A program made the position numbers and the translations under genes. A DNA stretch of 64,000 nucleotides from Eledone cirrhosa (taxonomy: Eukaryota). The stretch is taken from the NCBI GenBank assembly GCA_964016885.1, contig OZ024741.1, positions 206,646,001-206,710,000 of the forward strand. Direction: 5' to 3'. Under the pieces are notes generated by a model, which was not told the origin of the DNA, searched no databases, and saw only the letters and a list, made by a program, of their open reading frames with translations. Shown one piece after another: positions 35,429-64,000 of this stretch (position 1 is its first letter; each line of letters begins with the position of its first letter).

Positions 35429-35633
35429 GTTGTAGAAGAAGAGGTGAAGGACCATCAAAAGGTATCCAATATGAGAGTAAGCGCTCAACCGTTAAGGAGC
35501 AAGTTAATGTAGGAGGTGAGTTTTATTGTAGTACAATAAAGCAATGCAGATATCGGATAAGAAGCACTCTACAGTTTGTGGGACCGGAGTATGCATAATA
35601 TAAGATCAAAAGATGGTTAAAGGAGTTCAATAT

Positions 35634-35702
35634 ATTTTATTATGCGCATTTCAAAAACAAACATCATCAAACAATAATATTTGTGTTTTCATCAGATAAA
35701 AC
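35634..35702 (-). ncRNA. Hammerhead ribozyme, PLE copy 2 (upstream pLTR of copy 1)
   Basis: Reverse complement of 41281-41349. Confidence 0.85.
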
Positions 35703-36994
35703 AGGAGAACATGATATGAAGGCTAAAAAACACTTGTTGATAGTGCAGTTTTAAATCAACATATGAAAAGTGGTTTTAGATTGATGTGTGATATTGGGAA
35801 AAATATTTTATTTAGAGAGGGGGGGAGAGAAAAGGATGAAAAGGGAAGGAGATGAGAGGGAGAGATGGGTGATAGAGAGAAAGAGATAGTTTTTATAACT
35901 GAGAGGAGATATATTTTATATAGAGGGGTTGAAAACCGTTGGAAGATACTGTATAAATTGAAAATTTTGAAAATTAACGAAGGGAGGATATGTGCGAGGA
36001 AAAAATATATTATATTTAGGGAGGGGTGGGGGTGGAAAGGATGAAAAAAAGGGGAGGAGATGAGAGTGAAGGTGGAAAGGGAGAGATGGGTGATAGAGAG
36101 AAAGAGATAGTTTTCATAACTGAGAAAAAGATATAATGTTTTAATATAGAGAGGTTGGGAACCGTTGGAAGATAATGTATAAATTAAAGGAATTTGAAAA
36201 TTAACGAAGGGAAATTATGTATGGAGATAGAGAGAAAAAATTAACGAAGGGAAATTATATATGGAGATAGAGAGAAAAAAAAAATAACGAAGGGAAATTA
36301 TGTATGGAGATAGAGAGAAAAAAATAATAATTGTGGGTGAATATTCTAACGTCAAAAGAAGAAATGTAGGAATTTTAAAATTTTAAAATTAGCAAATAGA
36401 AAAAGTTTATGTGTAGAAGGATTTGAGAAAAATAATGTGAAGTTAAAGTTTTTATATTGAATTCATATGTATTAATAATGAGTTCGTTGATGGGGAGAAA
36501 AAAATAATAATAAATTAAGGATGAAATTGAGATTAAAAAGATTTATGATAGAGAGAAAAAATAATAATGATTGCGGATGAATACTCAAAATGTCAAAAAC
36601 AAATGTTATTGTTTTACGAGGAGATATAATGAGGGTGATGAGTAAACGGGTATTATAGAGTGCATAATGCCCTTTAAAGTAAGGTAGATGGGTATATTTT
36701 AAAGAATATATGAGTGTATATTAAAAAAAATATATATAATAATAAATTAAGGATGAAATTGAGATTAAAAAGATTTATGATAGAGGGAAAAAAAATAATA
36801 ATGATTGCGGATGAATATTCAAAATGTCAAAAACAAATGTTATTGTTTTACGAGAAGATAGGATGAGGGTAATAAGTAAACGAGTATTATAGAGTGTATA
36901 ATGCCCTTTAAAGTAAGGTAGATGGGTATATTTTAAAGAGGTGTATGTATATGTGCCTTTGAGAAAAGATTCTAAATTGATAAAGAATTGAATA

Positions 36995-38216
36995 TTAACT
37001 GTATACTTTGTGAAAAGTTCTATGGAATTTATGCAGGCAGATGGAAAACAAATCCGAGCGTCTATTTATTATGGATTCTAGGTTAGAGATAATGGTAAAT
37101 TTTTCATTTAGGCAGAGATTGCAGATTTTAGATAGAGAGCTGTTCAAGTACGAGGATGCAGAAGAAATCTTTTTCCAAAAAATGTTATATTTAATGTTTT
37201 TGTCTTTTAAGGACCATATGAGTTCTGAGAGAGCAGTGTTAGTTCTTTTAAGTTTGTATTTGAAAGATGAATGATGATTATAGAGACGAGCTTTAAAAGA
37301 GGTGGAAGTGGAGCCAAAATAGGTGAAGGAATTGGTGCTAGTTATAATTTTACATTCATAAATTAAGTTTTTATCGAGGCAATGGTTGTTGAGAGGACAT
37401 TTATTTTTAATGCGGCAGTTGCAATTAGAGAGATTATTAATGAGTGATCTAGTGTTATCTATAGAAGGAATTGGATTGGAGAAGTTGTTTGCGATAGGAA
37501 TAATAGGAATAATAGTTTCTTGATTTAGAGTTGGATTATGAACATTTAGCGAAGTTGTGTTTGACGTTGCATTTGGGTTTACAGAGGTTAGCCTAGGGTT
37601 TACAATGACGTCAGGAGTACTATTATTGTTATTATGAGATTCAATATTGGAAGGAAGAGATTTAGTATTTAATATTTTGTTGTTGTGTTTAGAGATGATG
37701 TTGGAAATATTGGAGGATGTAGAATACGAAAATTTGATGGTGTGTTTGTTAAATATTTTACTATAGATATGTGAGGGAGGGAAGCATTTATTTAAGGCAC
37801 TAAAAAATAATTTAGGAATATTGTTATTAATAGAGATGGAGAAAGGAGCATTATACCAGATTATGTTTTTGTATCTAGGTCTTTTATTAAAATTATTGGA
37901 ATGGTTATGATTAAGTATTCTACTGTAAGTTTTCCTAGAATTTGTTTCTTTATTATATTTGATTTTATCTGGATAGCCGGCTTTAGAAAGTGCGTTATTA
38001 TAGTAATTGGCGTTAGCATCAAAGATGTTTTTATTAGAAGATATGTTAGATATTCTATTTCCAATATTATTAACTATAGCATTCTTGATATTGGTAGGAT
38101 GGTTAGATTTAAAGTTAACATAATTAAGATTCTCATTGTTTTTATGGTAAGGGTAATATAGGCCAGTGTCAAGATTAAGAGATACATCCAAGAAATTAGC
38201 TAGTTTGGTACTATTA
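36995..38216 (-). pseudogene. 5'-truncated PLE ORF (RT thumb to GIY-YIG)
   Basis: Nearly identical to 32830-34050; the N-terminus in the ORF track is chimeric antisense sequence. Confidence 0.88.
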
Positions 38217-39989
38217 CTGGGGGTTGTTAGTAAAGCCATCTTGGATAGGATTATCCCACAGGTTAGTTCTAATTGCTCTTCTTTAAACCTAAATTTATGG
38301 TTTGGTACTTCTGAAGTGATTGGCTGGTTCAACAAATTGGATAATAAAAACAAACTAAAATTTATTCAATTCGATATTGCCAGCTACTATTCCTCCATTT
38401 CGCCTTCACTTCTCAATAATGCTCTATCTTTCGCACTTAAATATTCTGACATCACCACAGATGAACTTCACATCATCCTCACCGCACGTAAAACTATCCT
38501 AGAGTTCAACAACGAATATTGGACCAGAGCCGATACCTCTAACAACTTCGACATCACAATGGGAGCATCCGATTCATCCCAATTGACTGATTTAATTGGT
38601 ATCTTCATTTTGAACTCTTTGAGTCGGAAAATTCCTCAACTTCGCGGTGGAATTTATCGTGACGATGGACTCTTTACTATCCTAAATTGCAATATAGTTA
38701 AACTTAATATTATTAAGAACAATATACGTAATCTCTTTAACCAACATAACCTAAAAATTGAATTTGATAATAGTACCAAACTAGCTAATTTCTTGGATGT
38801 ATCTCTTAATCTTGACACTGGCCTATATTACCCTTACCATAAAAACAATGAGAATCTTAATTATGTTAACTTTAAATCTAACCATCCTACCAATATCAAG
38901 AATGCTATAGTTAATAATATTGGAAATAGAATATCTAACATATCTTGTAATAAAAACATCTTTGATGCTAACGCCAATTACTATAATAACGCACTTTCTA
39001 AAGCCGGCTATCCAGATAAAATCAAATATAATAAAGAAACAAATTCTAGGAAAACTTACAGTAGAATACTTAATCATAACCATTCCAATAATTTTAATAA
39101 AAGACCTAGATACAAAAACATAATCTGGTATAATGCTCCTTTCTCCATCTCTATTAATAACAATATTCCTAAATTATTTTTTAGTGCCTTAAATAAATGC
39201 TTCCCTCCCTCACATATCTATAGTAAAATATTTAACAAACACACCATCAAATTTTCGTATTCTACATCCTCCAATATTTCCAACATCATCTCTAAACACA
39301 ACAACAAAATATTAAATACTAAATCTCTTCCTTCCAATATTGAATCTCATAATAACAATAATAGTACTCCTGACGTCATTGTAAACCCTAGGCTAACCTC
39401 TGTAAACCCAAATGCAACGTCAAACACAACTTCGCTAAATGTTCATAATCCAACTCTAAATCAAGAAACTATTATTCCTATTATTCCTATCGCAAACAAC
39501 TTCTCCAATCCAATTCCTTCTATAGATAACACTAGATCACTCATTAATAATCTCTCTAATTGCAACTGCCGCATTAAAAATAAATGTCCTCTCAACAACC
39601 ATTGCCTCGATAAAAACTTAATTTATGAATGTAAAATTATAACTAGCACCAATTCCTTCACCTATTTTGGCTCCACTTCCACCTCTTTTAAAGCTCGTCT
39701 CTATAATCATCATTCATCTTTCAAATACAAACTTAAAAGAACTAACACTGCTCTCTCAGAACTCATATGGTCCTTAAAAGACAAAAACATTAAATATAAC
39801 ATTTTTTGGAAAAAGATTTCTTCTGCATCCTCGTACTTGAACAGCTCTCTATCTAAAATCTGTAATCTCTGCCTAAATGAAAAATTTACCATTATCTCTA
39901 ACCTAGAATCCATAATAAATAGACGCTCGGATTTGTTTTCCATCTGCCTGCATAAATTCCATAGAACTTTTCACAAAGTATACAGTTAA
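38217..39989 (+). CDS. 5'-truncated but uninterrupted PLE RT + GIY-YIG endonuclease frame
   Basis: FDIASYY, TMGAS, YRDD, FLDV, CNCx5Cx5C linker, IYECKI..YFGSTSTSFKARLYNH, CNLC; lacks the native N-terminus. Confidence 0.85.
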   Translation: MGVVSKAILDRIIPQVSSNCSSLNLNLWFGTSEVIGWFNKLDNKNKLKFIQFDIASYYSSISPSLLNNALSFALKYSDITTDELHIILTARKTILEFNNEYWTRADTSNNFDITMGASDSSQLTDLIGIFILNSLSRKIPQLRGGIYRDDGLFTILNCNIVKLNIIKNNIRNLFNQHNLKIEFDNSTKLANFLDVSLNLDTGLYYPYHKNNENLNYVNFKSNHPTNIKNAIVNNIGNRISNISCNKNIFDANANYYNNALSKAGYPDKIKYNKETNSRKTYSRILNHNHSNNFNKRPRYKNIIWYNAPFSISINNNIPKLFFSALNKCFPPSHIYSKIFNKHTIKFSYSTSSNISNIISKHNNKILNTKSLPSNIESHNNNNSTPDVIVNPRLTSVNPNATSNTTSLNVHNPTLNQETIIPIIPIANNFSNPIPSIDNTRSLINNLSNCNCRIKNKCPLNNHCLDKNLIYECKIITSTNSFTYFGSTSTSFKARLYNHHSSFKYKLKRTNTALSELIWSLKDKNIKYNIFWKKISSASSYLNSSLSKICNLCLNEKFTIISNLESIINRRSDLFSICLHKFHRTFHKVYS

Positions 39990-41280
39990 TATTCAATTCT
40001 TTATCAATTTAGAATCTTTTCTCAAAGGCACATATACATACACCTCTTTAAAATATACCCATCTACCTTACTTTAAAGGGCATTATACACTCTATAATAC
40101 TCGTTTACTTATTACCCTCATCCTATCTTCTCGTAAAACAATAACATTTGTTTTTGACATTTTGAATATTCATCCGCAATCATTATTATTTTTTTTCCCT
40201 CTATCATAAATCTTTTTAATCTCAATTTCATCCTTAATTTATTATTATATATATTTTTTTTAATATACACTCATATATTCTTTAAAATATACCCATCTAC
40301 CTTACTTTAAAGGGCATTATACACTCTATAATACCCGTTTACTCATCACCCTCATTATATCTCCTCGTAAAACAATAACATTTGTTTTTGACATTTTGAG
40401 TATTCATCCGCAATCATTATTATTTTTTCTCTCTATCATAAATCTTTTTAATCTCAATTTCATCCTTAATTTATTATTATTTTTTTCTCCCCATCAACGA
40501 ACTCATTATTAATACATATGAATTCAATATAAAAACTTTAACTTCACATTATTTTTCTCAAATCCTTCTACACATAAACTTTTTCTATTTGCTAATTTTA
40601 AAATTTTAAAATTCCTACATTTCTTCTTTTGACGTTAGAATATTCACCACAATTATTATTTTTTTCTCTCTATCTCCATACATAATTTCCCTTCGTTATT
40701 TTTTTTCTCTCTATCTCCATACATAATTTCCCTTCGTTAATTTTTTCTCTCTATCTCCATACATAATTTCCCTTCGTTAATTTTCAAATTCCTTTAATTT
40801 ATACATTATCTTCCAACGGTTCCCAACCTCTCTATATTAAAACATTATATCTTTTTCTCAGTTATAAAAACTATCTTTTTCTCTCTATCACCCATCTCTC
40901 CCTTTCCACCTTCACTCTCATCTCCTCCCCTTTTTTTCATCCTTTCCACCCCCACCCCTCCCTAAATATAATATATTTTTTCCTCGCACATATCCTCCCT
41001 TCGTTAATTTTCAAAATTTTTAATTTATACAGTATCTTCCAACGGTTTTCAACCCCTCTATATAAAATATATCTCCTCTCAGTTATAAAAACTATCTCTT
41101 TCTCTCTATCACCCATCTCTCCCTCTCATCTCCTTCCCTTTTCATCCTTTTCTCTCCCCCCCCTCTCTAAATAAAATATTTTTCCCAATATCACACATCA
41201 ATCTAAAACCACTTTTCATATGTTGATTTAAAACTGCACTATCAACAAGTGTTTTTTTAGCCTTCATATCATGTTCTCCT

Positions 41281-46730: not shown

Positions 46731-48999
46731 TTTCCATACGAACTGTATTTAAGTATGCCGAACTTGTTCTTCGATCACCTCGAAGCGGTCTACTGGAACT
46801 GGCAACATAACGGGAGAATTCTCTGTTCTGTGACCAAGGGCGTAGTCTCGCTAGTGAAGAAGGACGAGAACAAGGGATGAAATAAGTAATTTTAGGCCCA
46901 TAACACTGCTAAATGCAGAGTTAAAGATTTTGGCAAAGGTGTTAGCAAAGAGGTTGGCGCTTGTCGTGGGAAACCTGTTGGGAGATGCGCAGACATGCGC
47001 CATACCGTCCAGGTCCATTCACGACAACCTCCATCTCATGCGATACATCATAGAGAGGGTTGGGAACGAACCCGGCTTTGGTGGGGCCCGGATCAACTTG
47101 GATCAATCTAAGGCGTTTGATAGGGTTGAACATCGTTACCTGGATGCGGTGCTAGTGGCGGCAGATTTCGGACCCGTTTTCAGGGGCTGGATCACTGCCA
47201 TGCACAGCAGCCGCATCTGCTCTAGAGTCAAGGTGAACGGCTACCTCTCGGAGCCGTTCGAAATCACGCGGTCCATCCGACAGGGATGCCCTCTCTCCTC
47301 CCTTCTGTATGTATTGGCCCTAGAGCCACTGCTGGGAAGTTGGAGTTGTTACAGGGCATCCCTTTGGAACCGGGATTGCGGAAAGCGGTGTCGGCCTACG
47401 CCGACTACGTGACAGTAATGGTGTCAACCGCATCGGAAATCGGAGTAATCGGCACCTTACTGGAGGAATACGAAACGTTTACAGGGGCTAAGCTGAACCG
47501 GGACAAGTCAGTCGGTTTGCAACTCGGCGAGTGGAGGGGCAAAGCGATGGCCTCCAACGGCGTCGTCGGACGTTGGACGCAGGGCCCGGTGAAGTTGCTC
47601 GGGGTCTGGTTCGGGCCAGACCTCCAGGTGGAGAAGAACTGGGGTGAGGTATCGTACAGGGTGTTTGCGCTGACGCGGAAGTGGGCTGAGTGCAAACTAT
47701 CCCTGAAAGGTCGGGCGGAGGTGGCGTACGCTTATATAGCGTCCGTCATCTACTACCGCCTGACCGTCGTGCCTTGCCCAAGGGAAACGCTCACCAAAAT
47801 GGAGCGCGCACTCTTCCAATCCTTTGCAAGAAGCGGGCTCCTTTGGTGAGGAGATTCATCTGCTGTCAACACCCTTCGAAAGAAGGGCTGAGGATGCCGT
47901 GGCTGTCGATGCGTAAACACGCATAAAGGCTACGGCACCTCCAGGTATTCCTCACCGGTCAACCGGTGTGGCGAGTGGTTTGTGAGGCGAGCCTTCCCGA
48001 GACTCGTCTCGCTCACCGAGCTGCAGTCCTGGGTCAAGCAAAGACCGAGAAAACTGGGCGCCTGGCACACTGAGTGTGCCCAGGCGCTCACGGCTCTCTG
48101 GCGGACCCGGCTATCGGTGGAGACTCCACCTCGTCATTCTATAGAGGGCTGGTGGTTAGTAGGTGCGACGACGCCCTCGGACAAGCCCTAGGCATGGAGG
48201 GAGACGAACTGGTTAGCCTATTCGGGAGGACATTTGGCCCGGTATCTATGGACAACTTCCAGAAGTCCCTGGCCAGGCAGTGCTACCGAGGGCCGCTGCC
48301 CGTTCAAGAAAAGCTCTACAGGCACGGGCACCCGGGTAGGGACCCCTCGAAAAAAATCTGTCCCAGATGCGTGCGCGACGAGGAAACCGTTGCGCACGCA
48401 TTGGTACACTGCTCGGGCGTTGCCGATCAGTGGGGCTATGTCGAACGACTGCTGTCACGGGTGGGACCAATCCGGTTGACCACTGAGTCCATTGTAACGA
48501 TCAAGCCGCCTCCCCCCTTCAAAAATGAAGGAGAGGCGGTCTTCCTCTGTGTAATAGCCATGGTGAAAGAGGTGGTATGGTGGACACGTTTGAAAGGGCT
48601 GAGGTCGGACACCTTTCTCTCCGGCCAACAACGGGTCCTTTTCTTTAAATACCATTTTAAGAGAAGGATCAGAATGGAAAGAGAGGTGCTCTACCCCAGC
48701 AAGTTTTATGAAAGGTGGGTGAAAGTAGCGAGAATGGCCCGTGTGAATGGGCCTTCTCTCTATATCTGCCTGTAGGTGGAAAGGTGGAAGTGCAAAGCAG
48801 CACCCCCTCTTTGTGCTCCTAAGGAAAAGGGTTGCACACTTTTTCGGGGGTGTGTGTAACCCCCAAAACGCCTCCTCCCTATTGAGGACTGTATTGTTAA
48901 TTTTATATTTGATATTTGTTTTTTTACTCGTTCCTTTATGTAACCCCCCCACTTGTATTTTCCCCCTTTTTTGTGCCCTTGTGGCAAATAAATAGAAAC

Positions 49000-49292: not shown

Positions 49293-52200
49293 CTACTTGA
49301 CCAGCAGGTAGTAGCAGACATGGACAAAGGAAAGCCAACATTATCGCCTCAATATTTAGAAGAGGAACAAGCTTCAGTTGCTTGTAAGCAACTGAACACG
49401 CCTGACGTCACAAACGTCACATGTATCCACGCAACAAAAGGAATCATTGGCAACACAACGAATAAGACCATCATCACCACCAACAACAACAATAACACAA
49501 TTTCATTTGCAGCAACAGTTGCTAAGCAACAGGATTTTTAATACTACTCCATGGACATTTCCCAAAAGTCCCAATATTTGGAAGAAGCTTCCAACTATGT
49601 GACGTTTGAGGGAGACACCCCACACATACACATACCCCCACAAGTAAGAGAAATGACACAGAAAAAGAAGCTAATTTATAGAACAGTTGACATCACTACC
49701 AAAAAACCCATAACACTCCCAACAAGCACTATCGAAGCTGAACTAAAAGACATCAAGCCAAAGAGGTAAACAGTATGGAAGTGTGTCAGTGCTCTCTAAG
49801 AGCGAAACTTTGGCACAAAACACTCGGTTCACCCAATAAAAACGGATCAACACATCTTCTTCCCCACATACATGGGAAGAAGATCCTACAAAATAAAAAT
49901 AACCAGGATCCCAACAGAGGTTAACATATGGTGGATCCTACGCTGCATCCTGAAGAAGGATGAGGACACCCTCCTATCTCTAGACAGGACAGACTGGCAT
50001 AACTGGTTTGGAACCTGCATCGAGGTTCTGGTACAAATGAGGCCAGAGAGAGTTGAGAAAATACCGGACAGTATCGTCCTTGAGGAAGATGTCATCTCCA
50101 TTTTAGTGGAGTGGAAAGACCTCAGTGCCATAAGTGTGGGAAACCCACACTCTTAAAGGCCTTTTGCCCTCTCTTAAACAAACCGAGGACAAACAAGGTG
50201 TTATTACCAACACCAAACCCCCAACATCAACACTCCAAACCAAACACAACACAAACACCTGCAACATCCACTCCCACACCACCACAGACCAGAGACAGCC
50301 ACACACAAAATCCCACTGAAAAACCCTCCATTGCCTCTTCCCCTCTGTCAAATACTTCCACAAACCCCTGCACAAACACTCCACCACACAAAATACCCCT
50401 CCCATATACCCCTGATTCAGAAGTCTCAGATACGGGAACCTCTACATCTTCAAGTGAGAATGAAGAGGAACTCCAAAAATTCAAAAAACAAAAAAGACAC
50501 AAAAAAAAACACAAAACATCTACAGAAAACACGCACACACGCAACCCCACCATAAACACACCGCCACAAATGACAAACACACCAACAGCACAATCACCAT
50601 CAACACAACCAAACACTTCACCAACAAAACAAACACCCACACCACCACAATCACAAACTCCAACCACAAAAAGAAAACTACAAACAAAAACAGTACACAT
50701 AAAAAACAAAACACTACACATACATAAAAACAAGAAACAAAGAACTGGTGGAAACTGTCCGAAAGGACCCCACAATACAAACGGAAGGGAACACCTTCCC
50801 CACCAACGACCCGCCCCCAAACCTCAAACTTATCAGGGTAACAACCCTACAGTATGAAACTTTAAAAGAGAACTTCCCACATTATGTGCCCCCCCCCGCC
50901 CTTGCCAAAATCCCCTTTACCGTGTCCCGCTAAAAGGATTCCCTCCCTCACCAAACACCACCAATCTGGACTTAGAGATCGAACAACCCGATCTCCAGGA
51001 AACGAAAAGGTTAGTATTCCTGCCTTTTCTCTCCTTAACTCTACTTCACTAATATGGCGACTATACAAGCTGGATGTTTGAATGTACGTGGCTTGGGCAT
51101 GTCCTGGAAACAGGGCCAGCTTTTCAATGATCTCAGCTCACATTGTATAGATGTGATAGCCAACACCGAGTCCAGAATTCACGACAAGCAGCAGCTAACC
51201 CCCAAGTTCGATGATTTTGAGATCTACGCATCTCTCTGTCAGCCAGGACGTGGAGGGGGATTTGCTGTTCAGTTTCGAAAAAAATTGGATCTCAAAATAC
51301 AGACGATTCACTTGGACCCGGAGGGCAGCCTGGTGGTCATGGACGTCAATGGTAGTGAAGGTGGAGCTTTCAGACTGGTGGTCGTATATGCCTCGACTGG
51401 GACATCGCGACCAGAGTTCTTCAAGCGTCTGGAGCCATTCCTGGGAACATCTCGCTCCTTAGTGTTAGCGGGGGACTGGAATGGCATCTTAGACGCACGT
51501 TGAGACTATGTAGGAGCTTGTGATAATAGAGGGGGGTGTAATAGCCTCAAAAATCTCATCAGCCAATTCTAACTGGCTGATAGATATCGACTAGACTTCC
51601 CAAGTGCACCACTGTGGACACGGAGCAACCGCACTGGATCTTCTAGATCGTATTTAGATAGATTTTTAATTAGACAGAATGATAAGGAAACATTAAGCTG
51701 TCCACAAATAGTTGCCTATTCAGACCACAAATTAGTCACCTGCGTAGTCAACCTTGATAGAAAACATAGACAGGGACCCGGATACTGGAAGCTAAACATG
51801 TCGCACCCGGCACGTAAGGCCTACAGTAAACGGATTAGCACCTTAGTTAAGTGCCAGTTGACGAGGGCGATCGTCAACAACAGGTGGTGGAGCTCTCTCA
51901 AAAGAGCAATTAGAATAGAATCAATAGCATTTAGTAAGGAAGTAGCTTTAGAAAAAAACAAAACTGAAATGGAACTGGTAGCTAAAATAGAAGAGGCACT
52001 TAGGAATGGCAGTACAGCTGACGTGTTAGCGGCGAGAACGGCACTTGACCAGTTCTTCAACGTGAAACACGAAAGTTGTATTGTCAGAAGTAGAACACGT
52101 GCTCCAAGAAACGAGGGAGCCAAAGGTGTTAGCTGGGCCCGAGTGGCAGAGGCGAAAAGTGGCAACAAACCCATAATTCGGTCTTTGCAAGACAAAGATG

Positions 52201-54692
52201 GTCGCATTATACTTGAATCCAAGCAGATGTGCGCGGCCTTCCAGCAGCATTTTGCACAACTGTTCGAGCAAAGCGGTACATCGAGCGAAGTGATGGACTC
52301 AGCTCCTATTTCGGTGGCGTACCGCGACTCTAGAGCACGGATGCGGAGAACTGCGAAAGGCCAATCACAGCGGGCGAAATAGAAGATGCCCTAGGCCACT
52401 CCGGGAAACGCAAATCACCCGGTTTAGATGGTCTAGCCTATAAGTTTTACATAGGCATGTCGGACCTGTTCTCTGGCGTCCTCGAAGCGGTCTACTGTAA
52501 CTGGCAGCAGAACGGTAGGATTCCGAGTTGTATAGGCAGAGGCGTAGTAACGCTGATCAGGAAAGATGAGAACAAGGGGTATGAGATAAGCAATTTCAGG
52601 CCCATAACTCTGCTCAACACAGAGTTAAAGATTTTGGCCAAGGTGTTAGCAGCAAGGCTGGCGCTTGTCGTCGAGAACCTTGTAGGGGAAGCCCAAACGT
52701 GTGCAATCCCGACCAGGTCCATACACGACAACCTCCACCTCATGCGATACATCAGAGAGAGGGTAGGGTGTAAACCTGGCTTTGGTGGGGCTCTGATCAA
52801 TTTAGATCAGTCTAAGGCATTAAATAGGGTCGACCATCAATACTTGGAAGCAGTTCTCAAGGCGGCCAGCTTCGGTCCCGTCTTCAGAGGCTGGGTCACT
52901 GCCATGCACACCAGCATCTGCTCGGCAGTCAAGGTGAATGGCTACCTATCAAAGCCATTCCAAATCATGCATTCCATCCGTCAGGGATGCCCTCTCTCCT
53001 CCATTCTGTATGTACTGACACTCGAGCAATTACTGCGGAAATTGGAGCTGTTGCAGGGCATCCCGATCGAACCAGGACTGCGGAAAGCAGCGTCAGCCTA
53101 TGCCGACGACATAACGGTAATGGTGTGTCGAAAACCTCGGAAATCAGGGTATTCGGCAACCTCTTACAGGAATACGAAACGTTGACAGGAGCAAGACTAA
53201 ACCCAAACAAGTCTGTCGGTTTTCAACTCGGCACATGCAGAGGCAAACCCATGCCATCCGACAGTGTCGTTGGACGCTGAACGGAAGGACCGGTGAAATT
53301 ACTCGGGGTCTGGTTCCGTCCAGACCCCCAGGTGGACAAGAACTGGAATGAGGTCACGGCGAAGGTGTTTGCACTCACCCAGAAGTGGGCTGAGTGCAAA
53401 CTCTCCTTGAAAGGTCGAGCGGAGGTGGCGAACACTTACATAGCGTCCGTCATCTACTACCGCTTGACAATCGTGCCTTGCCTCCGCGAATACCTTACCA
53501 AAATGGAACGCCTACTCTTCAAGTTCCTCTGGAAAAAACAGGCTCCATTGGTGAGATCCATCTGCTGTCAACACCCTTCTAACGGATGGCTGGGCATGCC
53601 GTGGCTGATGATGCGCAAACATGCGCTGAGGCTACGCCATCTCCAGATATTCCTGACCGGTGAACCGGTGTGGCTGTCGTTTGTGAGACAAGCTCTTCCA
53701 AAACTCGTCTCACTAACAGAGCTGCAGTCCTGGGTCAAGCGAAGACCGAAAATGGGTGCCTGGTACCTCGAGTGCCTACAGGCGCTCACAGCCCTCCACC
53801 AAGCGGAAACAGCAATCAGCGGAGACTCCACTTCGACATTCTATATGGGATTAGTGGGGGATAAGTGCGACGACGTTTTCGGGGAAACTCTAGGCATCGA
53901 GGAGGACGAGCTGACCAGTCTGTTAGGGAGGACTTTCCGTCCAGGGCCTATGGATAACTTCCAGAGGTCTCTGGCCTGGCAGTGCTACCGAGGAGCTCTA
54001 CCAGTTCGAGACAAAATCTTCAGGCACGGACGCCCTGGCAGAGATCCTGCCAAAAAGACCTGTCCAAGATGCGAGCAAGACATCGAAACCGTTCTGCACG
54101 CAATTGTTCAGTGCCCAGGGGTGATCGACCTGTGAAATTATGTCGAACAGCTACTGTCATGTGTGGGACGCATCCAGTTGTCAGCTGAGTCCATCTCCGC
54201 CACCTTTTTCGCGGTTTTCCTCTGTCTGGTGTCTATGGAGAAAGAGGTAATATGGTGGACGAGGTTAAAAGGACTGAGGGAAAACACCTTTCTCTCCGGA
54301 CAACAACTTATTCCCTTCTTTAAGTATCACTTCTGAAGGAAGGTGAGAGTGGAGAGAGAGGTGCTACACGCCAGTAAATTCGTTGAAAGGTGGGTGAATG
54401 TGGTAAAAATGGCCCGAGTGAATGGGCCTTCTCTGTATATAAATCTGTAAGTTGAGGAAGATAGGAACACCTACAAAACGTGTTCTTGGTGTTGAGGGTT
54501 GTTCTGCCCACGGGGTGTAAAACAACCCTGCAGTAACGTCCCCCCCCCTCCCTACTGGGGATTTCAATTGTCATTTTATTATATATAGTTTATTGTTATT
54601 TATTAATGTTAAAGTTATTTTTATGTAAAACCCCCGCCGTCACGTCTTGTAATGTCCCATTTTTGTACGCCCCTGTGGCAAATAAAGAAAGA
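49293..54692 (+). mobile_element. Unit B: near full-length degraded Tx1-like element (ORF1 49320-~51050, ORF2 51054-54450)
   Basis: ORF1 remnants homologous to units D and E (FPTYMGRR, LVQMRPER); ORF2 CLNVRG, GDWN, SDH, YADD; multiple stops and frameshifts. Confidence 0.92.
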
Positions 54693-54814: not shown

Positions 54815-55738
54815 TCTCTGGCAGGCGGACCCGGCGATCAGTGGAGACTCCACTTCGTCATTCTATAGAGGGTTGGTCCGCAGCAAGTGCGACGACGCGC
54901 TCGGTGAAACTCTAGGCGTGGAGGAAGATGAACTGGCCAGTCTGTTCGGTAGGACCTTCCGCCCGGGACCGATGGACAACTTCCAAAAGTCCCTGGCCTG
55001 GCAGTGCTACCGAGGAGCTCTACCAGTTCGAGACAAGCTCTACAGACATGGGCGCCCGGGCAGGGACCCTGCAAAAAAGATCTGTCCGAGGTGCGTGCGA
55101 GACGAAGAAACCGTCGCGCACGCATTCATACACTGCCCGGGCGTCACTGACCTGTGGGGCTATGTAGAACGACTATTGTCGCGGGTGGGACCAATCCAGT
55201 TGACCACCGAGTCCATTGTCATGATCAAACCGCCACCCTCCTTCAAAAACGAAGGAGAGGCGGTTTTCCTTTGTGTGATAGCTATGGCGAAAGAGGTTGT
55301 ATGGTGGACAAGGTTGAAAGGGCTGAGGTCAGACACCTTTCTCTCCGGCCAACAACTGATTCTTTTTTTCAAATACCACTTTGGAAGAAGAATCAGGATG
55401 GAGAGAGAGGTGCTGTACCCCAGCAAGTTTTATGAAAGGTGGGTGAAAGTGGCGAGAATGGCCCGAGTGAATGGGCCTTCTCTCTATATCAGCCTGTAGG
55501 TTGAGGAAAAGAAGGAGGAGAGGAAGGGAGTACAAGCTCTTCGTACTCCTGGAGATGAGGGTTGCACATTTTTTTCGGGGGTCTGTGTTACCCATATAAA
55601 CTGTCTCCCTCTATTGGGGAAAATCGACTAACTTTTAAATTCCATCTGTGATAACATTTTACACGTTTTTATTGTATGTAAACTTCCCCCTTTGTATTTG
55701 TCCCCTTCTTTTGTGCCCCTGTGGCTAATAAAGAAATA
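54815..55738 (+). mobile_element. Unit C: 5'-truncated Tx1-like element (ORF2 C-terminus to 55499 plus 3' UTR)
   Basis: WQADP...CPRCVRDEETVAHAFIHC...GPSLYISL; flanked by (TATC)n. Confidence 0.92.
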
Positions 55739-55953
55739 TATCTATCTATCTTGATAGAGTAAGACACGCTTCGCATCGGCTCCGCTATTCCATCGGGATT
55801 TACCCTTACTATTGTAAGTACCGGATAAATTTTTTAGTGCAACACATTTGGAACACTAACCCCTGTTATTTAGGGAAACATTTTTGCATTTACCCCCTTT
55901 TTAGGGGGTAAAATAAATATCTATTTTTGCCGAAAAATTTCTTTCTTGGCAGC

Positions 55954-57785
55954 ATGGCGGAAAAGATGGCAGACATGTCTGCCATTAGCTCTGCCACGCC
56001 CCCCAAGTCTGAAGAACAAAAAATAATTACAACAAAATTAGACATTGAAACAAACAAACAAAATGAAAAAACAAATGTTAAGGAAAATGAGCAAACAGAA
56101 AACAAACAAACAGAAAATAATACAAATAACGACAGGGCAACTTTCGCCCAGAAAACAAAACAATCCATTACATACACACCAATTGACCTAACTGCCGCCA
56201 GAGAAAAACTGGCCGAAGCAAAGAAACACATTGTTTTGGGGGAGAACGGAATGTTTTCCATTAACTCCCCCCCAGAATTCAAGAAAGCCAGAGCAGAAAA
56301 CACAGTTCTCTACAGAACTATACTGAATCAGACAAGAAAGCCAGCACAGCCCAGCCAAATGGAAATAGAGTTAGTCCTAAAAGACTATATGAAGAATATT
56401 CTCTTCATACGAAAGGACCGACTCTATGGCAGCATTTCGGTCCTAACAAGAGACAAAGAAACGGCGGAGAAGCTTTCCCTAAGCCCACTCTCGTCGACAA
56501 CATATAGCTTCTATCCCTCCTACATGGGTAAAAGAACACAGAGAGTAAAAGTAAAAACAATGCTGCCCACAATGGACTTCTGGTGGGCTATTGCTGGCTT
56601 CATTGATATGGGCGAAGACACAATGCTGTCAATGGGGAAGGCAACTGGAGATGCGTTCCTGGGAATGGGCCTCGACATACTAGTCCAAATGAGGCCCGAA
56701 AGAATAGCACAAATCCCGGATCGCATCTGGCTGGATGACCTTACCCCAATAGACATAATTGTAGAGGGGAGAAGACCAGCATGCTATTTATGCATGGAAA
56801 GGGGACACGTTAAGGCTAACTGCCCGAAACGTATCCCCCAAAAAGGACTATTGCCCACACCCACCACAAACAGTACACCAACACCACCCACCTCCAAAAA
56901 TACACTAATACCACACACAGCAAACAAAATACAGACACCACCAACCACAAACACAACACAAACATCACCACCACCAGCACCAAACACAAGCACGACACAA
57001 AAATCACCACCACCAACCACAACACAAACATCACCACCACCATCACCAACCACAAGCACGACACAAACATTACCACCACCACCACAAAACCCATTCCAAA
57101 CAAATAATAAAAAAAGCAGTAACAAATCTACCCCTCCCGCAAAAAAAAAACAACCACACAACACGTCCCTCCCACCTAGCGCTGAAGAGTTTCCCCCAAC
57201 TTCTGAAGAAGAAGGAGGAGAAGCCTTCAGACAAGTTAAAAGAAAAAAAAGAAAACACACACCCAGCACACCACAAATAACCCACACACAAACACCAACT
57301 CCAATCAAAAACACCCCACCCTCAACAAACAAAAATAAATCTGCGCCTCCCCTCTCCGAAACATTGACAGCATCACAAAAAAAGACGTTGCAATACACAT
57401 ATATAAACAAAGAAAACAAAAAACTGGTTAAATTAATAAACAATAACCCTATGGTGCAGACCGAAGGGCCAAACTTTATCTCAGCAGAGAACTTCACCCA
57501 TTTAAAAATGATAAAGGTCCCTCTGGACCTTTATCGTTCCTTAAAAGAACAATTTAGACGGGACGTGAGCCCCCCTGTTTAAAACCGTTGAATCGCGTCC
57601 TCTTGAAAGATTTCCCCATAACCGCCCCTCTCCCTGACACAACTCCAAATACCCCAACCCCACCACACACGTGTACCCCCACACCACCACAAAACATCCC
57701 TCCACCCAACACACCTGATGCCATGGAAATTACACAACCCGGAGAGGTAAGTGCTTTTCTTTCTTCACTTTCAACACCAAAATAG
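55954..57785 (+). CDS. Unit D ORF1: gag-like protein with CCHC zinc knuckle and Pro/Thr-rich tail (frameshift at ~57572)
   Basis: CYLCMERGHVKANC; basic NLS-like RQVKRKKRK; continuation NRVLLKDFP.. in another frame matches unit E. Confidence 0.85.
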
Positions 57786-60700
57786 ATCAATTGAGAGTTG
57801 GCTGTTTGAACGCGCGTGGCCTGGGCTCAGCTTGGAAGCAAGCAAAGCTTCTAAGTGACCTCAGGTCACAAAGTATAGATGTGATGGTTGTTTGCGAGAG
57901 TCGGATCAGCAGCGTGAGACAGCTGGCGCCCGCCTTCGATGACTTTGAGATGCACGCATCTCTCTGTCAACCCGGAGGCGGGGGGGGGGGAGCTGCCGTA
58001 CTGCTGGATAAACGTCTGACTCTCGACGTACAGATTGTTCACTCGGACCCGGGGGGTCGATTACTGGTGCTGGACGTCGGACGCGGTGAAGGCGGGGCTT
58101 TCAGACTGGTCGGTCTTTATGCTCCCTTCGGGGCGGAAAGAGCCGACTTCTTCCAGCGTCTGGAGACTTTTCTAGGAACGTCGCGTTCCCTGCTTTTAGT
58201 GGGGGACTGGAATGGAATCCTAGATGCGCGTTGGGACTATGCAGGGGCATGTCCCGATAGAGGGGGGTGTAGCAGCCTCAAGGGGTTACTCGATCGATTC
58301 GACCTGGTCGATAGATTTCGACTAGATTGTCCAACTGCGCCAACCTGGACCTGGGCAAACCGCAGTGGACAATCTAGATCGTACCTAGATAGGTTTTTGG
58401 TTAGGAGTAAGGATAGGGACGTATTTAGTTGTCCAGAACTGATCATGGTTGGCTATTCAGATCACAAATTAGTGACCTGCGTGGTCAACCTTGATAGAAC
58501 GCATAGACAGGGTCCCGGTTACTGGAAGATGAACTTGTCCTTACCGACAAAGAAAGATTACAGAAACCGGATTAGTAGCTTAGTTAAGATGCGGTTGACG
58601 GGAGCGATCGTCAACAGTAGGTGGTGGATATCTCTAAAGAGAGAGATTAGAGTAAGTTCGATAGGTTACAGTAAGGAACTAGCGGCGAATAGAAATAGGA
58701 GGGAAAGGGAGTTAACAGATAAACTAGAAGAGGCGATTAGGAGCGGAGACGTAGCCAGAGTGTTAGCGACGAGAACGGCATTGAGCCAGTTCTTTGACGC
58801 GAAGCACGAAGGCTGCGTTGTCCGAAGTAAAATACGTGCTTTAGGAAACGAGGGGACCAAAGCTGTTAGCTGGGCCCGCGTGACAGAAGCCAAGAGTGGG
58901 ATTAAATCCACCATTCGGTCTTTGCGAGACCAGGATGGACGGGTGATCCTTGAACCTGAGCGAATGTGCGAGACCTTTCAAAGGCACTTTGCTCGACTGT
59001 TCGGAGGTGGCCGGGGGCCGGACGGGGATGTGGACTTCGGTCCATACCTCGACGGTCTACCGCGTCTTTCGAGCGGCGAAGCGGAGTGCTGCGAAAGGCC
59101 AATCACAGCCACTGAAATAGGGGAAGCGCTCAGCCAATGCAGCAGACGCAAATCCCCGGGTCTCGATGGTCTACCATACGAACTTTATTTAGCTATGCCG
59201 GTCTTGTTCTCCGAACTCCTCGAGGCTGTCTATTGCAACTGGCAACAGAACGGGAGAATTCCCTGTTCTGTGACCAAGGGCGTGGTCACGCTAGTGAGGA
59301 AGGACGAGAGCAAGGGGGACGACTTAAGTAACTTTAGGCCCATAACTCTGCTGAATGCAGAGTTACAGATTTTGGCCAAGGTGTTGGCGAAGAGGTTGGC
59401 GCTTGTGGTGGGTGGTTTGGTGGGAGACGCGCAGACATGCGCTATCCCGTCCAGGTCCATTCACGACAACCTCCACCTCATGCGATACATCATAGAGAGG
59501 GTTGGCTACGAACCCGGCTTTGGTGGGGCCCTGATCAACTTGGATCAATCTAAGGCGTTCGATAGGGTCGACCATGGTTACCTGGATGTGGTGCTAGCGG
59601 CGGCGGGCTTCGGACCCGTTTTCAGGGGCTGGATTTCTGCCATGCACAGTGGCAACATCTACTCTAGGATTAAAGTAAACGGCTACCTCTCGGAGCCGTT
59701 TCAAATCACCCGATCCATCAGACAGGGGTGTCCCCTCTCCTCCCTTCTGTACGTATTGACTCTCGAGCCACTGCTGCGGAAGTTGGAGTTGCTGCGGGGC
59801 ATACCCCTGGAACCGGGATTGCACAAAGCGGTCTCGGCCTATGCCGACAACGTAACAGTAATGGTGGCGGACGCCTCGGAAATCGGGGCGATCGCCACCC
59901 TACTGGAGGAATACGAAAGGCTGACGGGGGCTAAGCTGAACCAGGACAAGTCAGTCGGTTTGCAACTCGGAACGTGGAGGGGCAAACCGATGCCGTTAGA
60001 CGGTGTCGTCGGGCGGTGGACGGAGGGCCCGGTGAAGCTGCTCGGGGTCTGGTTCGGACCGGACCTTCAGGTGGAGAAGAATTGGGGCGAGGTGACGAGC
60101 AGGGTGTTTGCGCTGACCCAGAAGTGGGCCAAGTGCAAACTATCACTGAAAGGTCGGGCGGAGGTGACGAACGCTTACATAGCGTCCGTCATCTACTACC
60201 GCCTGACCGTCGTGCCTTGCCCCAAGGAAAAGCTCACCATCATGGAACGCATGCTCTTCCAGTTCCTCTGGAAGAAGCGGCCTCCCATGGTGAGGAGATC
60301 CATCTGCTGCCAGCACCCTTCGAAAGGAGGGCTGGGTATGCCGTGGCTGTTGATGCGTAGGCACGCATTGAGGCTACGGCATCTACAGGTATTCCTCAAC
60401 GGTCAGCCGGTGTGGGCCCCGTTTGTGAGGCGAGCCTTCCCACAGCTCGTCTCGCTCACCGAACTGCAATCCTGGGTGAAGCAAAGACCGAGAAAACTGG
60501 GCAACTGGCACACCGAGTGTGCCCAGGCGCTCACGGCTATCTGGCAAGCGGACCCGACTGTCAGTGGAGAATCCACCTCGACATTCTATAGAGGGTTGGT
60601 GGCTAGCAGGGGCGACGACACCCTTGGAGAGTCGCTAGGCATGGAGGAGGACGAACTGGCCAGCCTGTTCGGTAGAACTTTCGGCCCGGGACCCATGGAC

Positions 60701-61222
60701 AACTTCCAGAGGTCCCTAGCCTGGCAGTGTTACCGGGGGTCTCTGCCCGTTCGAGAAAAGCTCTACAGACACGGGCGCCCGGGCAGGGATCCCGCGAAAA
60801 AGATCTGTCCCAGATGCGTGCGCGACGAGGAAACCGTTGCGCATGCACTGGTACACTGCCCGGGCGTTGCCGATCTGTGGGGCTACGTCGAACAACTGCT
60901 GTCGCGTGTGGCGCCGATTCGATTAACCGCCGAGTCTGTGGTGAACATCAAGCCGCCTCCTCTCTTCAGAAATGAAGCAGAGGCGGTCTTTCTGTGCGTA
61001 ATAGCCATGATGAAAGAGGTTGTGTGGTGGACGCGCCTGAAAGGTCTGAGGTCGGGTGACTTTCTCTCCGGCCATCACCTGGTTTACTTCTTCCGATACC
61101 ACTTCGGAAGAAGAATCAGGATGGAGAGAGAAGTGCTTGGTCCCAGACAGTTTTATGAAAGGTGGGTGAAAGAAGCGAGAATGGCCCGTGTAAATGGGCC
61201 TTCTCTCTACATTGTTCTGTAG
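57782..61222 (+). CDS. Unit D ORF2: APE endonuclease, reverse transcriptase and C-terminal zinc knuckle
   Basis: NARG, GDWN, YLDRF, SDH; KSPGLDG, FRPITLLN, LDQSKAFD, RQGCPLS, YADN; CPRC-x8-H-x4-C; start codon position reads ATA. Confidence 0.92.
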   Translation: MDQLRVGCLNARGLGSAWKQAKLLSDLRSQSIDVMVVCESRISSVRQLAPAFDDFEMHASLCQPGGGGGGAAVLLDKRLTLDVQIVHSDPGGRLLVLDVGRGEGGAFRLVGLYAPFGAERADFFQRLETFLGTSRSLLLVGDWNGILDARWDYAGACPDRGGCSSLKGLLDRFDLVDRFRLDCPTAPTWTWANRSGQSRSYLDRFLVRSKDRDVFSCPELIMVGYSDHKLVTCVVNLDRTHRQGPGYWKMNLSLPTKKDYRNRISSLVKMRLTGAIVNSRWWISLKREIRVSSIGYSKELAANRNRRERELTDKLEEAIRSGDVARVLATRTALSQFFDAKHEGCVVRSKIRALGNEGTKAVSWARVTEAKSGIKSTIRSLRDQDGRVILEPERMCETFQRHFARLFGGGRGPDGDVDFGPYLDGLPRLSSGEAECCERPITATEIGEALSQCSRRKSPGLDGLPYELYLAMPVLFSELLEAVYCNWQQNGRIPCSVTKGVVTLVRKDESKGDDLSNFRPITLLNAELQILAKVLAKRLALVVGGLVGDAQTCAIPSRSIHDNLHLMRYIIERVGYEPGFGGALINLDQSKAFDRVDHGYLDVVLAAAGFGPVFRGWISAMHSGNIYSRIKVNGYLSEPFQITRSIRQGCPLSSLLYVLTLEPLLRKLELLRGIPLEPGLHKAVSAYADNVTVMVADASEIGAIATLLEEYERLTGAKLNQDKSVGLQLGTWRGKPMPLDGVVGRWTEGPVKLLGVWFGPDLQVEKNWGEVTSRVFALTQKWAKCKLSLKGRAEVTNAYIASVIYYRLTVVPCPKEKLTIMERMLFQFLWKKRPPMVRRSICCQHPSKGGLGMPWLLMRRHALRLRHLQVFLNGQPVWAPFVRRAFPQLVSLTELQSWVKQRPRKLGNWHTECAQALTAIWQADPTVSGESTSTFYRGLVASRGDDTLGESLGMEEDELASLFGRTFGPGPMDNFQRSLAWQCYRGSLPVREKLYRHGRPGRDPAKKICPRCVRDEETVAHALVHCPGVADLWGYVEQLLSRVAPIRLTAESVVNIKPPPLFRNEAEAVFLCVIAMMKEVVWWTRLKGLRSGDFLSGHHLVYFFRYHFGRRIRMEREVLGPRQFYERWVKEARMARVNGPSLYIVL

Positions 61223-61453
61223 GTGAAGAAGTGAAGAGGAAAGGGAGAGCGCCTCCTCTCTGGGCTTCCCCCGCGAAAAGAGTTGCACACTTTTCGGGGG
61301 TATGTGCAATCCCCAACACGCCCCCTCCCTTTTGAGGACTTTTTATTGTTATATTATTATTGTTATTCCTTTTTTCTTTACTCGATTTATGTAAACTCCC
61401 CCACTGTGTAAATGTCCCCTTCTTTTGTGCCCTCGTGGCAAATAAATAGAAAT

Positions 61454-61454
<1 letters not shown>

Positions 61455-61537
<83 letters not shown>
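61455..61537. repeat. (TATC)n spacer/target tract (also 46713-46730, 49001-49082, 49225-49292, 54693-54814, 55739-55750)
   Basis: Direct reading. Confidence 0.95.
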
Positions 61538-61778: not shown

Positions 61779-63685
61779 ATGTTAAACGAAGCGAACGAAA
61801 ATAGTGGTGGGGGGACAGCGGTAAGAGTTGTAAGCTCGCACGGTTTAGCCCCCCCCTTCCTTCCCAACTAACGTCATAGAGAAGGAAGGAATAAAAAAAA
61901 TAAAAACAGACGAATCTGCGGAGAAAAATGACGAAAACACAAATCTGGACATGGATTCCAACAACGAAAAAAAAATTATTTGAAAAATTGCATGACAATA
62001 TTAATACCACAAACAAAGACACAACAAACACAAAAATAACATTTGAAAACAACATCATAACAGAAAGCAAAGCAGACGACAGAGTCAACAAGATTTCATT
62101 TGCACAAACAACAAAGAAATCTTTGACATATATACCCGAAAATATTTCAGATGTGGCACGAAGAATCACAGACGCCAAACAATACATAAGTGAAGGAGAG
62201 AATGGTATTTTATCGGTAAAAATGCCTCAAGAACTCACCAAAGACATTGAAAGTCGAACGGTCGTGTTCCGCACCATCAACAACACTTCAAAAAAACCTG
62301 AACAGCCTTCTCAAGCAGATATCAAAACAGTACTCACAGAAGTACTTAATGAAACCACTTTCATAAGAAAAGACAGACTGTATGGGAGCCTAGCAATTAT
62401 TATGAAGAACGAATCGGCGGCAAAAAAATGTGCTTTGTCACCGATTCGTTTGAAAAATTTTACCTTTTATCCATCTTATATGGGGAAAAGAACTCAACGC
62501 ATATGGCTGGATGCAATGATGCCAGATGTGGACTACTGCTGGCTCATAGCTGGCTTCATCGATCCAGTGAATGACAACGTGATTTCCATTGGGAAAACCA
62601 CAGGCAATGCGTTCAGTGGAACAGGTATAGAGCTGGTAGTGCAAATGAAGCCTGAACGCATCGCCCAAATACCCGAGAGAATCCTATTAGAGGGCCACGG
62701 GTATATAAACATTAGCGTGGAGGGGAGAAGGCCGTCCTGTCATATCTGTGCAGGCAGAGGGCACCCGAAGGCCGCTTGTCCCCAACTCAACAAAAAGAAA
62801 ACCCTGCTACCAACACCAGCTCCACCACCACCACCACAACAGATAAACAAACAACAAAACTCAGTCCTACCCAACCCGTCCCTCAGTAAAACTACACCAC
62901 CACCACAACACAAACAGTCACAACACATTACCCCAAAACAAAATACAGGCCCACCCAAACCCTCACTCAATAAAACAACACAACCACCGCAGACACAACA
63001 CACAACACAGTCTAACATAGTGACATCCATCTCCCCCACAAAGAAAACCAACACGGAAACATTACCAGCAAACATACCTCTTCCCTCCAACACTGAAGAT
63101 AACCCAACGAATTCGGAGGAAGAAACGGAGTCCTTCAGACAGATTAAAAGGAAAAAAAGAAAACATGTGCAAAACACACAAGGCCAAACAACCCACACCC
63201 AAATGTCAACACAATCCAACAAAACAGAAAACACCCCTCCAGCAACAAACAAAACCAAACCTGCCCCTCCCCTCTTCGAAACACTCACACCATCCGAAAA
63301 AAAGACATTACACTATACTTACATCAACAGAAACAATAATAAATTAAATGAACTCATAAACAATAATCCTTCGGTACAAACCGAAGGTGTAAACTTTGTT
63401 TCTTCAGAAAACTACCCACATTTAAAATTAATAAAGATCCTAATGAACCTCTACCAAAAACTAAAAAAGGATTTTAAGGAGGACGTAGGACCACCCTCTG
63501 TCAAACCCATAAACCGCGTCCTACTAAAAAGCTTTCCCCCTCCCCTTCCCCTCCCCAACACAACTCCAAACACCCCAACCCCACCACACACTGACGACCC
63601 CACACCACCACAAGACACCCCTTCACCCAACACCCCCGAACCCATGGAAGTCGTGCGACCCGAACCCCGGGAAGCGGAAAGGTAG
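61779..63685 (+). CDS. Unit E ORF1 (open 61928-63685; true start probably 61779 with homopolymer frameshifts)
   Basis: CHICAGRGHPKAAC knuckle; FIRKDRLYGS and FYPSYMGKRTQR shared with D; LDMDSN in a shifted frame matches D LDIETN. Confidence 0.82.
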
Positions 63686-63718
63686 GTCTCTACACTCTCC
63701 TTTGGCTCTGCCGCCCAC

Positions 63719-64000
63719 ATGGATGTGTTAAGAGTAGGATGTTTGAATGCACGTGGCCTGGGCTCAACTTGGAAGCAAGCAAAGCTTCTAAATGACCTCA
63801 GGTCATGTGGTATAAATGTAATGGTTATCTGTGAGACTCGGATCAGCGTCGTGCGGCAGCTGGCCCCCACCTTCGATGACTTTGAGGTGCATGCATCTCT
63901 CTGTCAACCTGGAGGTGGGGGTGGGTTTGTCGTACTGCTGCAAAAACACCTGGGTCTTGCCGTACAGGTTGTGCACTCGGACCCGGAGGGTCGTTTGTTG
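63719..64000 (+). CDS. Unit E ORF2 N-terminus (APE endonuclease), partial
   Basis: MDVLRVGCLNARGLGSTWKQAKLLNDLRSCGINVMVICETR. Confidence 0.9.
   Translation, partial: MDVLRVGCLNARGLGSTWKQAKLLNDLRSCGINVMVICETRISVVRQLAPTFDDFEVHASLCQPGGGGGFVVLLQKHLGLAVQVVHSDPEGRLL

Follow-up and report, generated by a model that had tools for sequence, protein, structure and literature searches.

Can the whole enzymatic reading frame of a retrotransposon double as an optional intron? This question is raised by a 64,000-nucleotide stretch of the Eledone cirrhosa genome (contig OZ024741.1, positions 206,646,001 to 206,710,000, forward strand; hereafter the window), which comes from a 3.0 Gb assembly and contains long interspersed nuclear elements (LINEs) that we take to be of the L1/Tx1 type. 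The elements carry two open reading frames (ORFs), ORF1 for the protein ORF1p and ORF2 for the endonuclease and reverse transcriptase, ORF2p. The original prediction for this DNA held that ORF2 is bracketed by a splice donor at the end of ORF1 and by an acceptor at its own stop codon. In a comparison of about 290 collected loci, the donor was found to be conserved in three different reading phases of ORF1, and a candidate acceptor at the ORF2 stop was found in part of the lineages. Based on these comparisons, we put the probability that ORF2 is an optional intron, spliced in a fraction of the transcripts, at roughly 45%. The following features are central to this question (a slash in a motif marks the putative splice point).

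Window from 46.7 kb onward: five LINE copies, A to E, head to tail, with (TATC)n runs between them.
55750..61455, + strand: element D, a full-length LINE of a young subfamily, 97.7-99.3% identical to other copies over its whole length (BLAST).
57744..57752, + strand: 5' splice-site motif of D, GAG/GTAAGT, GT at 57747, ORF1 phase 0.
63679..63687, + strand: donor of E, AAG/GTAGGT, GT at 63682, overlapping the ORF1 stop in phase 2; the ORF2 ATG at 63719 is in the same frame.
51007..51015, + strand: donor of B, AAG/GTTAGT, GT at 51010, decayed in the window copy.
57753..57781, + strand: pyrimidine-rich, G-poor stretch directly after the D donor; at positions +7 to +30 the G fraction is 0.00-0.12 in all 15 representatives.

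The donor motifs predicted for D, E and B, and the ORF2 stops predicted for D, A, C and B, all lie where they had been placed. One copy per lineage was compared for 15-16 lineages, a set that varies slightly between analyses and is drawn from D, D2, E, H, J, J2, J3, G, A, C, B, M, M2, N1, N3, N4 and O. In 92 of 102 distinct copies, a G/GTRRGT motif precedes the endonuclease start by 25-70 nt, compared with 1 of 714 control windows in the same copies, and the 10 copies without an intact donor have damaged forms at the same place. The donor is GTAAGT or GTAGGT in 30 of 30 D loci, and the only variants throughout are GTAAGT, GTAGGT and GTGAGT. All 15 representatives share five donor bases (G, G, T, G, T); in the same DNA alignment, a single other column is invariant in the upstream 45 nt and none in the spacer, and the background invariance at four-fold degenerate sites of ORF2 is 71 of 269. 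The combination of a stop triplet with GG before and GT after it is rare, with only 10 cases among 6631 stop triplets in the window. The sequence around the donor had been described as unalignable; this proved too strong, since the ORF1 ends align as protein and the DNA is merely poorly conserved, with a mean column identity of 57%.

The position of the donor is independent of the ORF1 frame. In E, H, J, B, C and M it lies in phase 2 and contains the ORF1 stop; D has it in phase 0, and N and O have it in phase 1, with the ORF1 stop two codons past the donor. On the ORF2 tree O is the sister of M, which implies that the phase has changed three times or more. In every lineage the donor is 0-12 codons from the ORF1 stop. 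The predicted position at the end of ORF1 thus holds at or near the stop, but in D (open copies) the donor sits 12 codons inside ORF1. A simple U1-complement score, applied to the 233-317 GT sites of each element, places the donor first in 13 of 15 (five of them tied), second in C and fourth in M; in D it ranks first of 263 (copy L036). U1 would presumably bind there, and no RNA structure is predicted at the donor (z 0.07). The GTTAGT reported for B is indeed present in the window copy, but it reflects the decay of a single copy, as 6 of 7 other B copies have AAG/GTAAGT. Judged from these alignments, the donor is a selected nucleotide-level signal shaped like a 5' splice site and not a stop-codon context. 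It is far stronger than the original prediction knew, and its conservation holds whichever mechanism is right.

The other boundary of the proposed intron is located at the end of ORF2, for which four sites were compared in the window.

61199..61223, + strand: candidate 3' splice site of D, a pyrimidine tract plus TAG/G at the ORF2 stop TAG (61220-61222).
48752..48776, + strand: ORF2 end of A, TAG/G, stop at 48773-48775.
55476..55500, + strand: ORF2 end of C, TAG/G, stop at 55497-55499, with a competing CAG 7 nt upstream.
54427..54451, + strand: ORF2 end of B, TAA at 54448-54450 in the window copy; B 3' ends elsewhere have TAG, so that the predicted TAAG of B is real in this copy and, like its donor, a matter of single-copy decay.

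Among the 269 AGs of D (copy L036), that of the stop codon ranks first; 16 of the 20 positions before it are pyrimidines, and there is no AG upstream. By pyrimidine content, the stop AG ranks 1-4 in D, D2, E, H, J3 and C. Of 16 representatives, 13 end ORF2 in TAG; M, M2 and a single G copy, in which the stop is mutated, do not. A second AG is found 7 nt upstream of the stop AG in H, J, G, A and C; in M and M2 an AG lies 13 nt upstream of the stop and an AAG/G 7 nt downstream, and one M-like copy has TAG/G at this downstream place. Among 163 distinct ORF2 ends, 81 are TAG/G and 66 are TAA/A, the latter being the form of clade M, which was oversampled by the searches. The first 30 nt of the 3' untranslated region (UTR) have a purine fraction of 0.60-0.93 in 15 of 16 representatives (ORF2 mean 0.55), and this purine-rich start may resemble an exonic enhancer. 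The acceptor evidence appears weaker than the donor evidence: the site is top in D, but it is not conserved across the superfamily. The refuting outcome for the donor, a lack of GT conservation across the family, was not observed; the expected conservation of AG at the ORF2 stop is seen outside clade M as TAG, but it breaks down in M and, for the tract, in N and O.

From these observations we infer splicing, a choice of acceptor and a purpose. Splicing would join the ORF1-end donor to an AG that either belongs to the ORF2 stop or lies no more than about 15 nt away from it; the proposed intron of D would be 57747-61222, and the acceptor AG would probably vary by a few bases between lineages. 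The spliced mRNA would give ORF1p with almost no added residues, and the unspliced RNA would give ORF2p and serve as template. The purpose could be the supply of extra ORF1p or the damping of transposition, for example in the soma, and in this way ORF2 splicing might set the ORF1:ORF2 ratio.

The reading frame of the spliced product can be checked, because splicing deletes the ORF1 stop in every lineage and exon 2 must therefore provide one. In D the predicted product, PGE followed by VKK and a stop, is obtained for copies with an open ORF1; it fails for the window copy, in which a frameshift in a C-run near 57575 leads to an ORF1 stop of its own upstream of the donor, at 57582. The spliced proteins of E and H would have the same end as the unspliced ones. 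With the stop AG as acceptor, a tail of at most 3 codons in the donor phase is found in 9 of 16 representatives (expected 6.0). With the first AG after the tract as acceptor, 13 of 16 have such a tail (expected 7.3; P 0.002, and 0.016 at the clade level), and the misses are B, the G copy with a mutated stop and one O copy. Further O-type ends have an immediate phase-1 stop in 4 of 5 cases, but not in two full-length O copies (L261 and L274). Upstream AG codons are restricted to phase-2 lineages (7 of 10, vs 0 of 6 for the others). The frame test can be taken as support for an optional intron, not as proof.

Several results count against an optional intron. The stop AG ranks only 7-29 by pyrimidines in J, J2, G, B, N and O, and N and O have no clear pyrimidine tract. 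The active family M has the donor, yet its ORF2 stop is TAA, and M2 likewise has TAA. In the frame test, the result for the stop AG has a P of 0.07 if the lineages are independent and of 0.12 by six clade blocks; the first-AG rule was picked post hoc, after the data had been seen, and the rule itself partly produces its phase-2 cases, since an AGN codon sets the tail in the ORF2 frame. The raised synonymous constraint that had been expected in the last ORF2 codons was not found: four-fold identity over the last 15 codons is 0.68, compared with a mean of 0.63 (standard deviation 0.12). The tract encodes P-S-L-Y, and part of it is paired in a predicted RNA structure.

61177..61205, + strand: predicted hairpin over the last ORF2 codons, which pairs part of the pyrimidine tract; z -2.08 for 61170-61340.

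In addition, LINEs attain a high ORF1:ORF2 ratio already by translation. The hairpin as the cause of the pyrimidine tract was considered and rejected: 87.5% of the cells are paired, but the covariation is within that of shuffled alignments (191 of 500 as high), and a compensatory change in the O hairpin was not borne out.

The absence of processed copies weighs in the same direction, since a spliced RNA would retain the 3' UTR and could be reinserted into the genome. The original prediction looked to genomic copies in which ORF1 is joined to the 3' UTR, and no copy with the intron exactly removed was found with six genome-wide patterns, which fit the predicted junctions of 15 of 19, 8 of 8, 10 of 10 and 6 of 7 collected copies and exclude B and the ACG-donor form of M. 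The D patterns gave 1 match on the donor side and 4 on the acceptor side, all point mutants; the 3 matches of the two-part pattern for D, E and H were two unspliced B copies and one unrelated sequence; and the two-part patterns for J/G/C, M2 and N had no match genome-wide. For scale, related patterns match 1658 ORF2 starts and 1888 ORF2 ends, and D makes up 36 of the 100 listed among these 1888. Internal deletions of the GT-AG type or starting at the donor are likewise absent among the 40 listed. An ORF1-only RNA would need ORF2p in trans to be copied, and splicing confined to the soma would leave no germline trace, so that the missing copies lower the odds of the model rather than exclude it. 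Assembled contigs of four runs from one study, none of them recorded as RNA, were compared over 57695-61330, a span that leaves out the 5' part of ORF1. The smallest run (87.8 million letters) contains a contig that reads through the donor unspliced, covering 57695-57967, and another that spans the ORF2 stop at 60854-61330. Of the 15 contig joints listed, no joint begins at the donor (123 further joints are unlisted). Contigs drop rare forms, and this result is therefore no evidence either way on splicing.

Optional splicing of ORF2 is nevertheless favored, because a splice at this site would leave ORF1 intact with its stop codon in the final exon, because an idle 5' splice-site motif harms an unspliced mRNA, and because the best acceptor in D is the ORF2 stop itself. 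It has been shown in human cells that an unused 5' splice-site motif inhibits export and promotes decay (PMC4380460), so that keeping the donor should be costly. Of the two halves of the predicted intron, the donor half has stood, and the acceptor half has stood in part, with short in-phase tails above chance under one post hoc rule. Extended to the whole superfamily, ORF2 would be a regulated optional intron in which donor and acceptor co-evolve through the phase shifts with ORF1p kept intact, forming a switch between an ORF1-only mRNA and a retrotransposition-competent RNA that is possibly tissue-specific; to this tentative extension we give rather less than even odds.

A different use of the same donor is the docking of the U1 small nuclear ribonucleoprotein without productive splicing, which would guard against cleavage at poly(A) signals within the A-rich ORF1 or, by holding part of the RNA in the nucleus, limit activity. 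We regard this as the main rival, less probable than optional splicing, and several observations fit it: a conserved donor without an equally conserved partner (e.g., the TAA of M), the processed copies missing from all six patterns, and a second donor-like site, TAG/GTAGGT, at the ORF2 stop of N1 (L257, L258 and L284). The major donor of HIV-1 reportedly suppresses a poly(A) site that lies upstream of it. An AATAAA or ATTAAA is present 188-345 nt upstream of the donor in 11 of 15 representatives; however, such signals are not above codon shuffles (40 observed, 43.8 expected) and lie within a conserved protein block. Retention by a 5' splice-site motif has been documented (PMC4380460). Docking has no need for a position at the ORF1 stop, however, and leaves the short in-phase tails unexplained.

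The donor could also be spliced to another acceptor, such as a TAG about 440-454 nt downstream in the endonuclease region, which would decapitate ORF2 in the manner of the short intron of plant Ty1/copia elements. This TAG passes a filter of at least 14 pyrimidines in 20 in 13 of 15 representatives, tops 90 conserved AG columns and rests on a Leu codon that ends in A in 8 of 8 intact ORF2s. One best site among 90 is expected, however, and the resulting frame is that of ORF2 for phase-1 donors and out of frame for the others, which leaves this acceptor improbable.

A role in translation, in which the motif provides a strong stop context and a reinitiation signal for an ORF2 start about 30-50 nt downstream, is held to be similarly improbable. 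The motif overlaps the ORF1 stop in the phase-2 lineages and precedes the pyrimidine spacer and a conserved CCAACATG, but it is kept in D, N and O, in which it is not the stop, and its variants are common donor hexamers only, matching the consensus of such hexamers. ORF2 initiation in LINEs is known to be non-canonical (PMC3894237), in line with a translational signal. A mini-intron of 39-53 nt that would fuse ORF1 to ORF2, from the donor to the AG of an Arg codon at the ORF2 start, was rejected, as this AG is dictated by a protein motif, the intron would be very short, and the AUG-less D has no in-frame AG. That the motif is functionless and inherited by chance is hardly credible: the lineages are related and the ORF2 four-fold sites are unsaturated (identity 0.50-0.57 between clades), but five positions have stayed invariant through indels and three changes of phase, and only 1 of 714 control windows has the motif.

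The remaining features of elements D and E are as follows.

55912..57785, + strand: D ORF1, for a putative CCHC-knuckle ORF1p; in open copies the frame passes the donor to TAG 57783-57785.
57719..61222, + strand: D ORF2, open for 1167 codons, with apurinic/apyrimidinic (AP) endonuclease, reverse transcriptase and zf-RVT.
57782..57785, + strand: ATA, overlapping the TAG stop of ORF1, at the place where other subfamilies start ORF2.
61223..61446, + strand: D 3' UTR, with the first 30 nt purine-rich, predicted stem-loops and AATAAA at 61441-61446.
61455..61534, + strand: (TATC)n run separating D and E.
61904..63685, + strand: E ORF1, open, ending in AGG TAG.

The D ORF2 matches the Pfam domains Exo_endo_phos and RVT_1, with zf-RVT below its cut-off, and its closest match in the PDB is human L1 ORF2p (E 9.5e-49). 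For ORF1, zf-CCHC was detected below the cut-off (E=0.018) in copy L036, one of three ORF1s in one scan, and in neither of two in another scan; the top Atlas match (0.92) is in a zf-CCHC cluster. A search for ORF1 homologs in public proteins, aimed at spliced C-termini, gave no match. Subfamily D has no AUG for ORF2, as the ATA/TAG overlap is found in 30 of 30 loci (window positions 57779-57790), and its ORF2 is under purifying selection, with a ratio of nonsynonymous to synonymous substitution rates (dN/dS) of 0.20 vs J and 0.14 vs E. A -1 slip at the ORF1 stop is another option for the D ORF2 start. In E (window 63683-63721), H and J, ORF1 and ORF2 share a frame, and one stop and 8-12 sense codons precede the ORF2 ATG, so that readthrough would yield a fusion protein. 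In one M copy (L207:591-6098), ORF1 and ORF2 are fused in an open frame of 1836 codons, with a short deletion just upstream of the donor. Stem-loops are predicted in the 3' UTR (window 61240-61320), the arms of which seem complementary in several subfamilies, and these are a candidate recognition site for the reverse transcriptase.

Within the array, B and D are full-length, B being decayed; A and C are truncated at the 5' end, and E extends beyond the window end. Among the collected loci, too, a head-to-tail order of copies is common. The ORF1/ORF2 junction of D has 971 candidates in the genome, the best 40 at 99-100%, and a first look with the ORF2 C-terminus gave 49,764 candidates, a figure that counts candidates and not copy number. 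The lineages form two main clades, with ORF2 proteins 66-71% identical and four-fold sites 50-55% identical, and their ORF1 C-termini are 20-64% identical to that of D. Two database homologs were found, neither named by clade, one of them from Argonauta hians at 58%, consistent with an octopod host; relatives sought in metagenome and viral contigs were not found. At least two TATC units follow 47 of 151 distinct 3' ends, a repeat that may be target or tail. The repeat differs by clade, being of the TATC type in D, E, J, B and C and (ATT)n at the listed M and N ends. In two cases (L168 and L253), the 5' and 3' ends of one assigned element belong to different subfamilies, which suggests recombination or nested insertion. 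Elsewhere in the window, positions 32830-40500 contain three AT-rich ORFs (547, 456 and 610 codons), which lie on opposite strands and show strong GC skews of opposite sign; by eye they resemble a Penelope-like element in an inverted arrangement, and a Pfam scan gave no match.

Translation is usually held solely responsible for the balance of ORF1p and ORF2p in LINEs. A putative U1 site that has persisted at the end of ORF1 through three changes of frame, in a family with tens of thousands of candidate copies, points to control by RNA processing. If U1 only docks there, the donor would still be a cis-element that has not been described before. If ORF2 is removed by splicing, LINEs would have arrived independently at the strategy of copia, and RNA-seq counts of LINE expression in cephalopod tissues would not equal competent RNA.

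In the literature consulted, which lies outside subscription journals, Repbase and supplements and was seen in part, there is no report of ORF2 as a LINE intron or of a conserved donor at the ORF1 end. Splicing is not mentioned in the work on LINE ORF2 initiation (PMC3894237). The ATA/TAG of D resembles the overlapping stop-start of SART1 described in that work, but the codon in D is non-AUG. L1-Tx1 families have been recently active in Octopus vulgaris (PMC13282606). Kibi and Koshi, microsatellite-targeting elements of the Tx1 clade, are likewise LINEs with AP endonuclease and reverse transcriptase beside simple repeats, but the flanks here are (TATC)n or (ATT)n, and a splice signal is unreported for Kibi and Koshi in the consulted part of PMC4494074. 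Conserved introns in a non-LTR (long terminal repeat) element are known from TART, but these are antisense, mostly short and without coding outcome (PMC1636488). Functional splice sites in a LINE are also known from human L1, in which the SpIREs are genomic copies made from spliced RNA (131 of 6609 full-length L1s, about 2%); however, those splices lie inside the 5' UTR or run from the 5' UTR to ORF1, with ORF2 kept and mobility in cis, whereas the donor here is at the ORF1 end (PMC5860796). The shGAG RNA of the plant Ty1/copia elements EVD and BARE1 also has a donor near the end of the structural gene that is conserved across diverged families, but in these LTR elements the intron is short, lies around the protease region and is linked with premature termination (PMC5580714). 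The nearest parallel is the gag RNA of Drosophila copia, in which the intron spans all of POL: as proposed for the present LINEs, an intron of about 3 kb covers the whole enzymatic region, and the spliced RNA encodes the structural protein only (PMC5580714). Copia, however, belongs to the LTR elements, has one gag-pol ORF and is spliced demonstrably, whereas the LINEs described here are bicistronic, with an ORF2 start of their own and a splice that is predicted from sequence.

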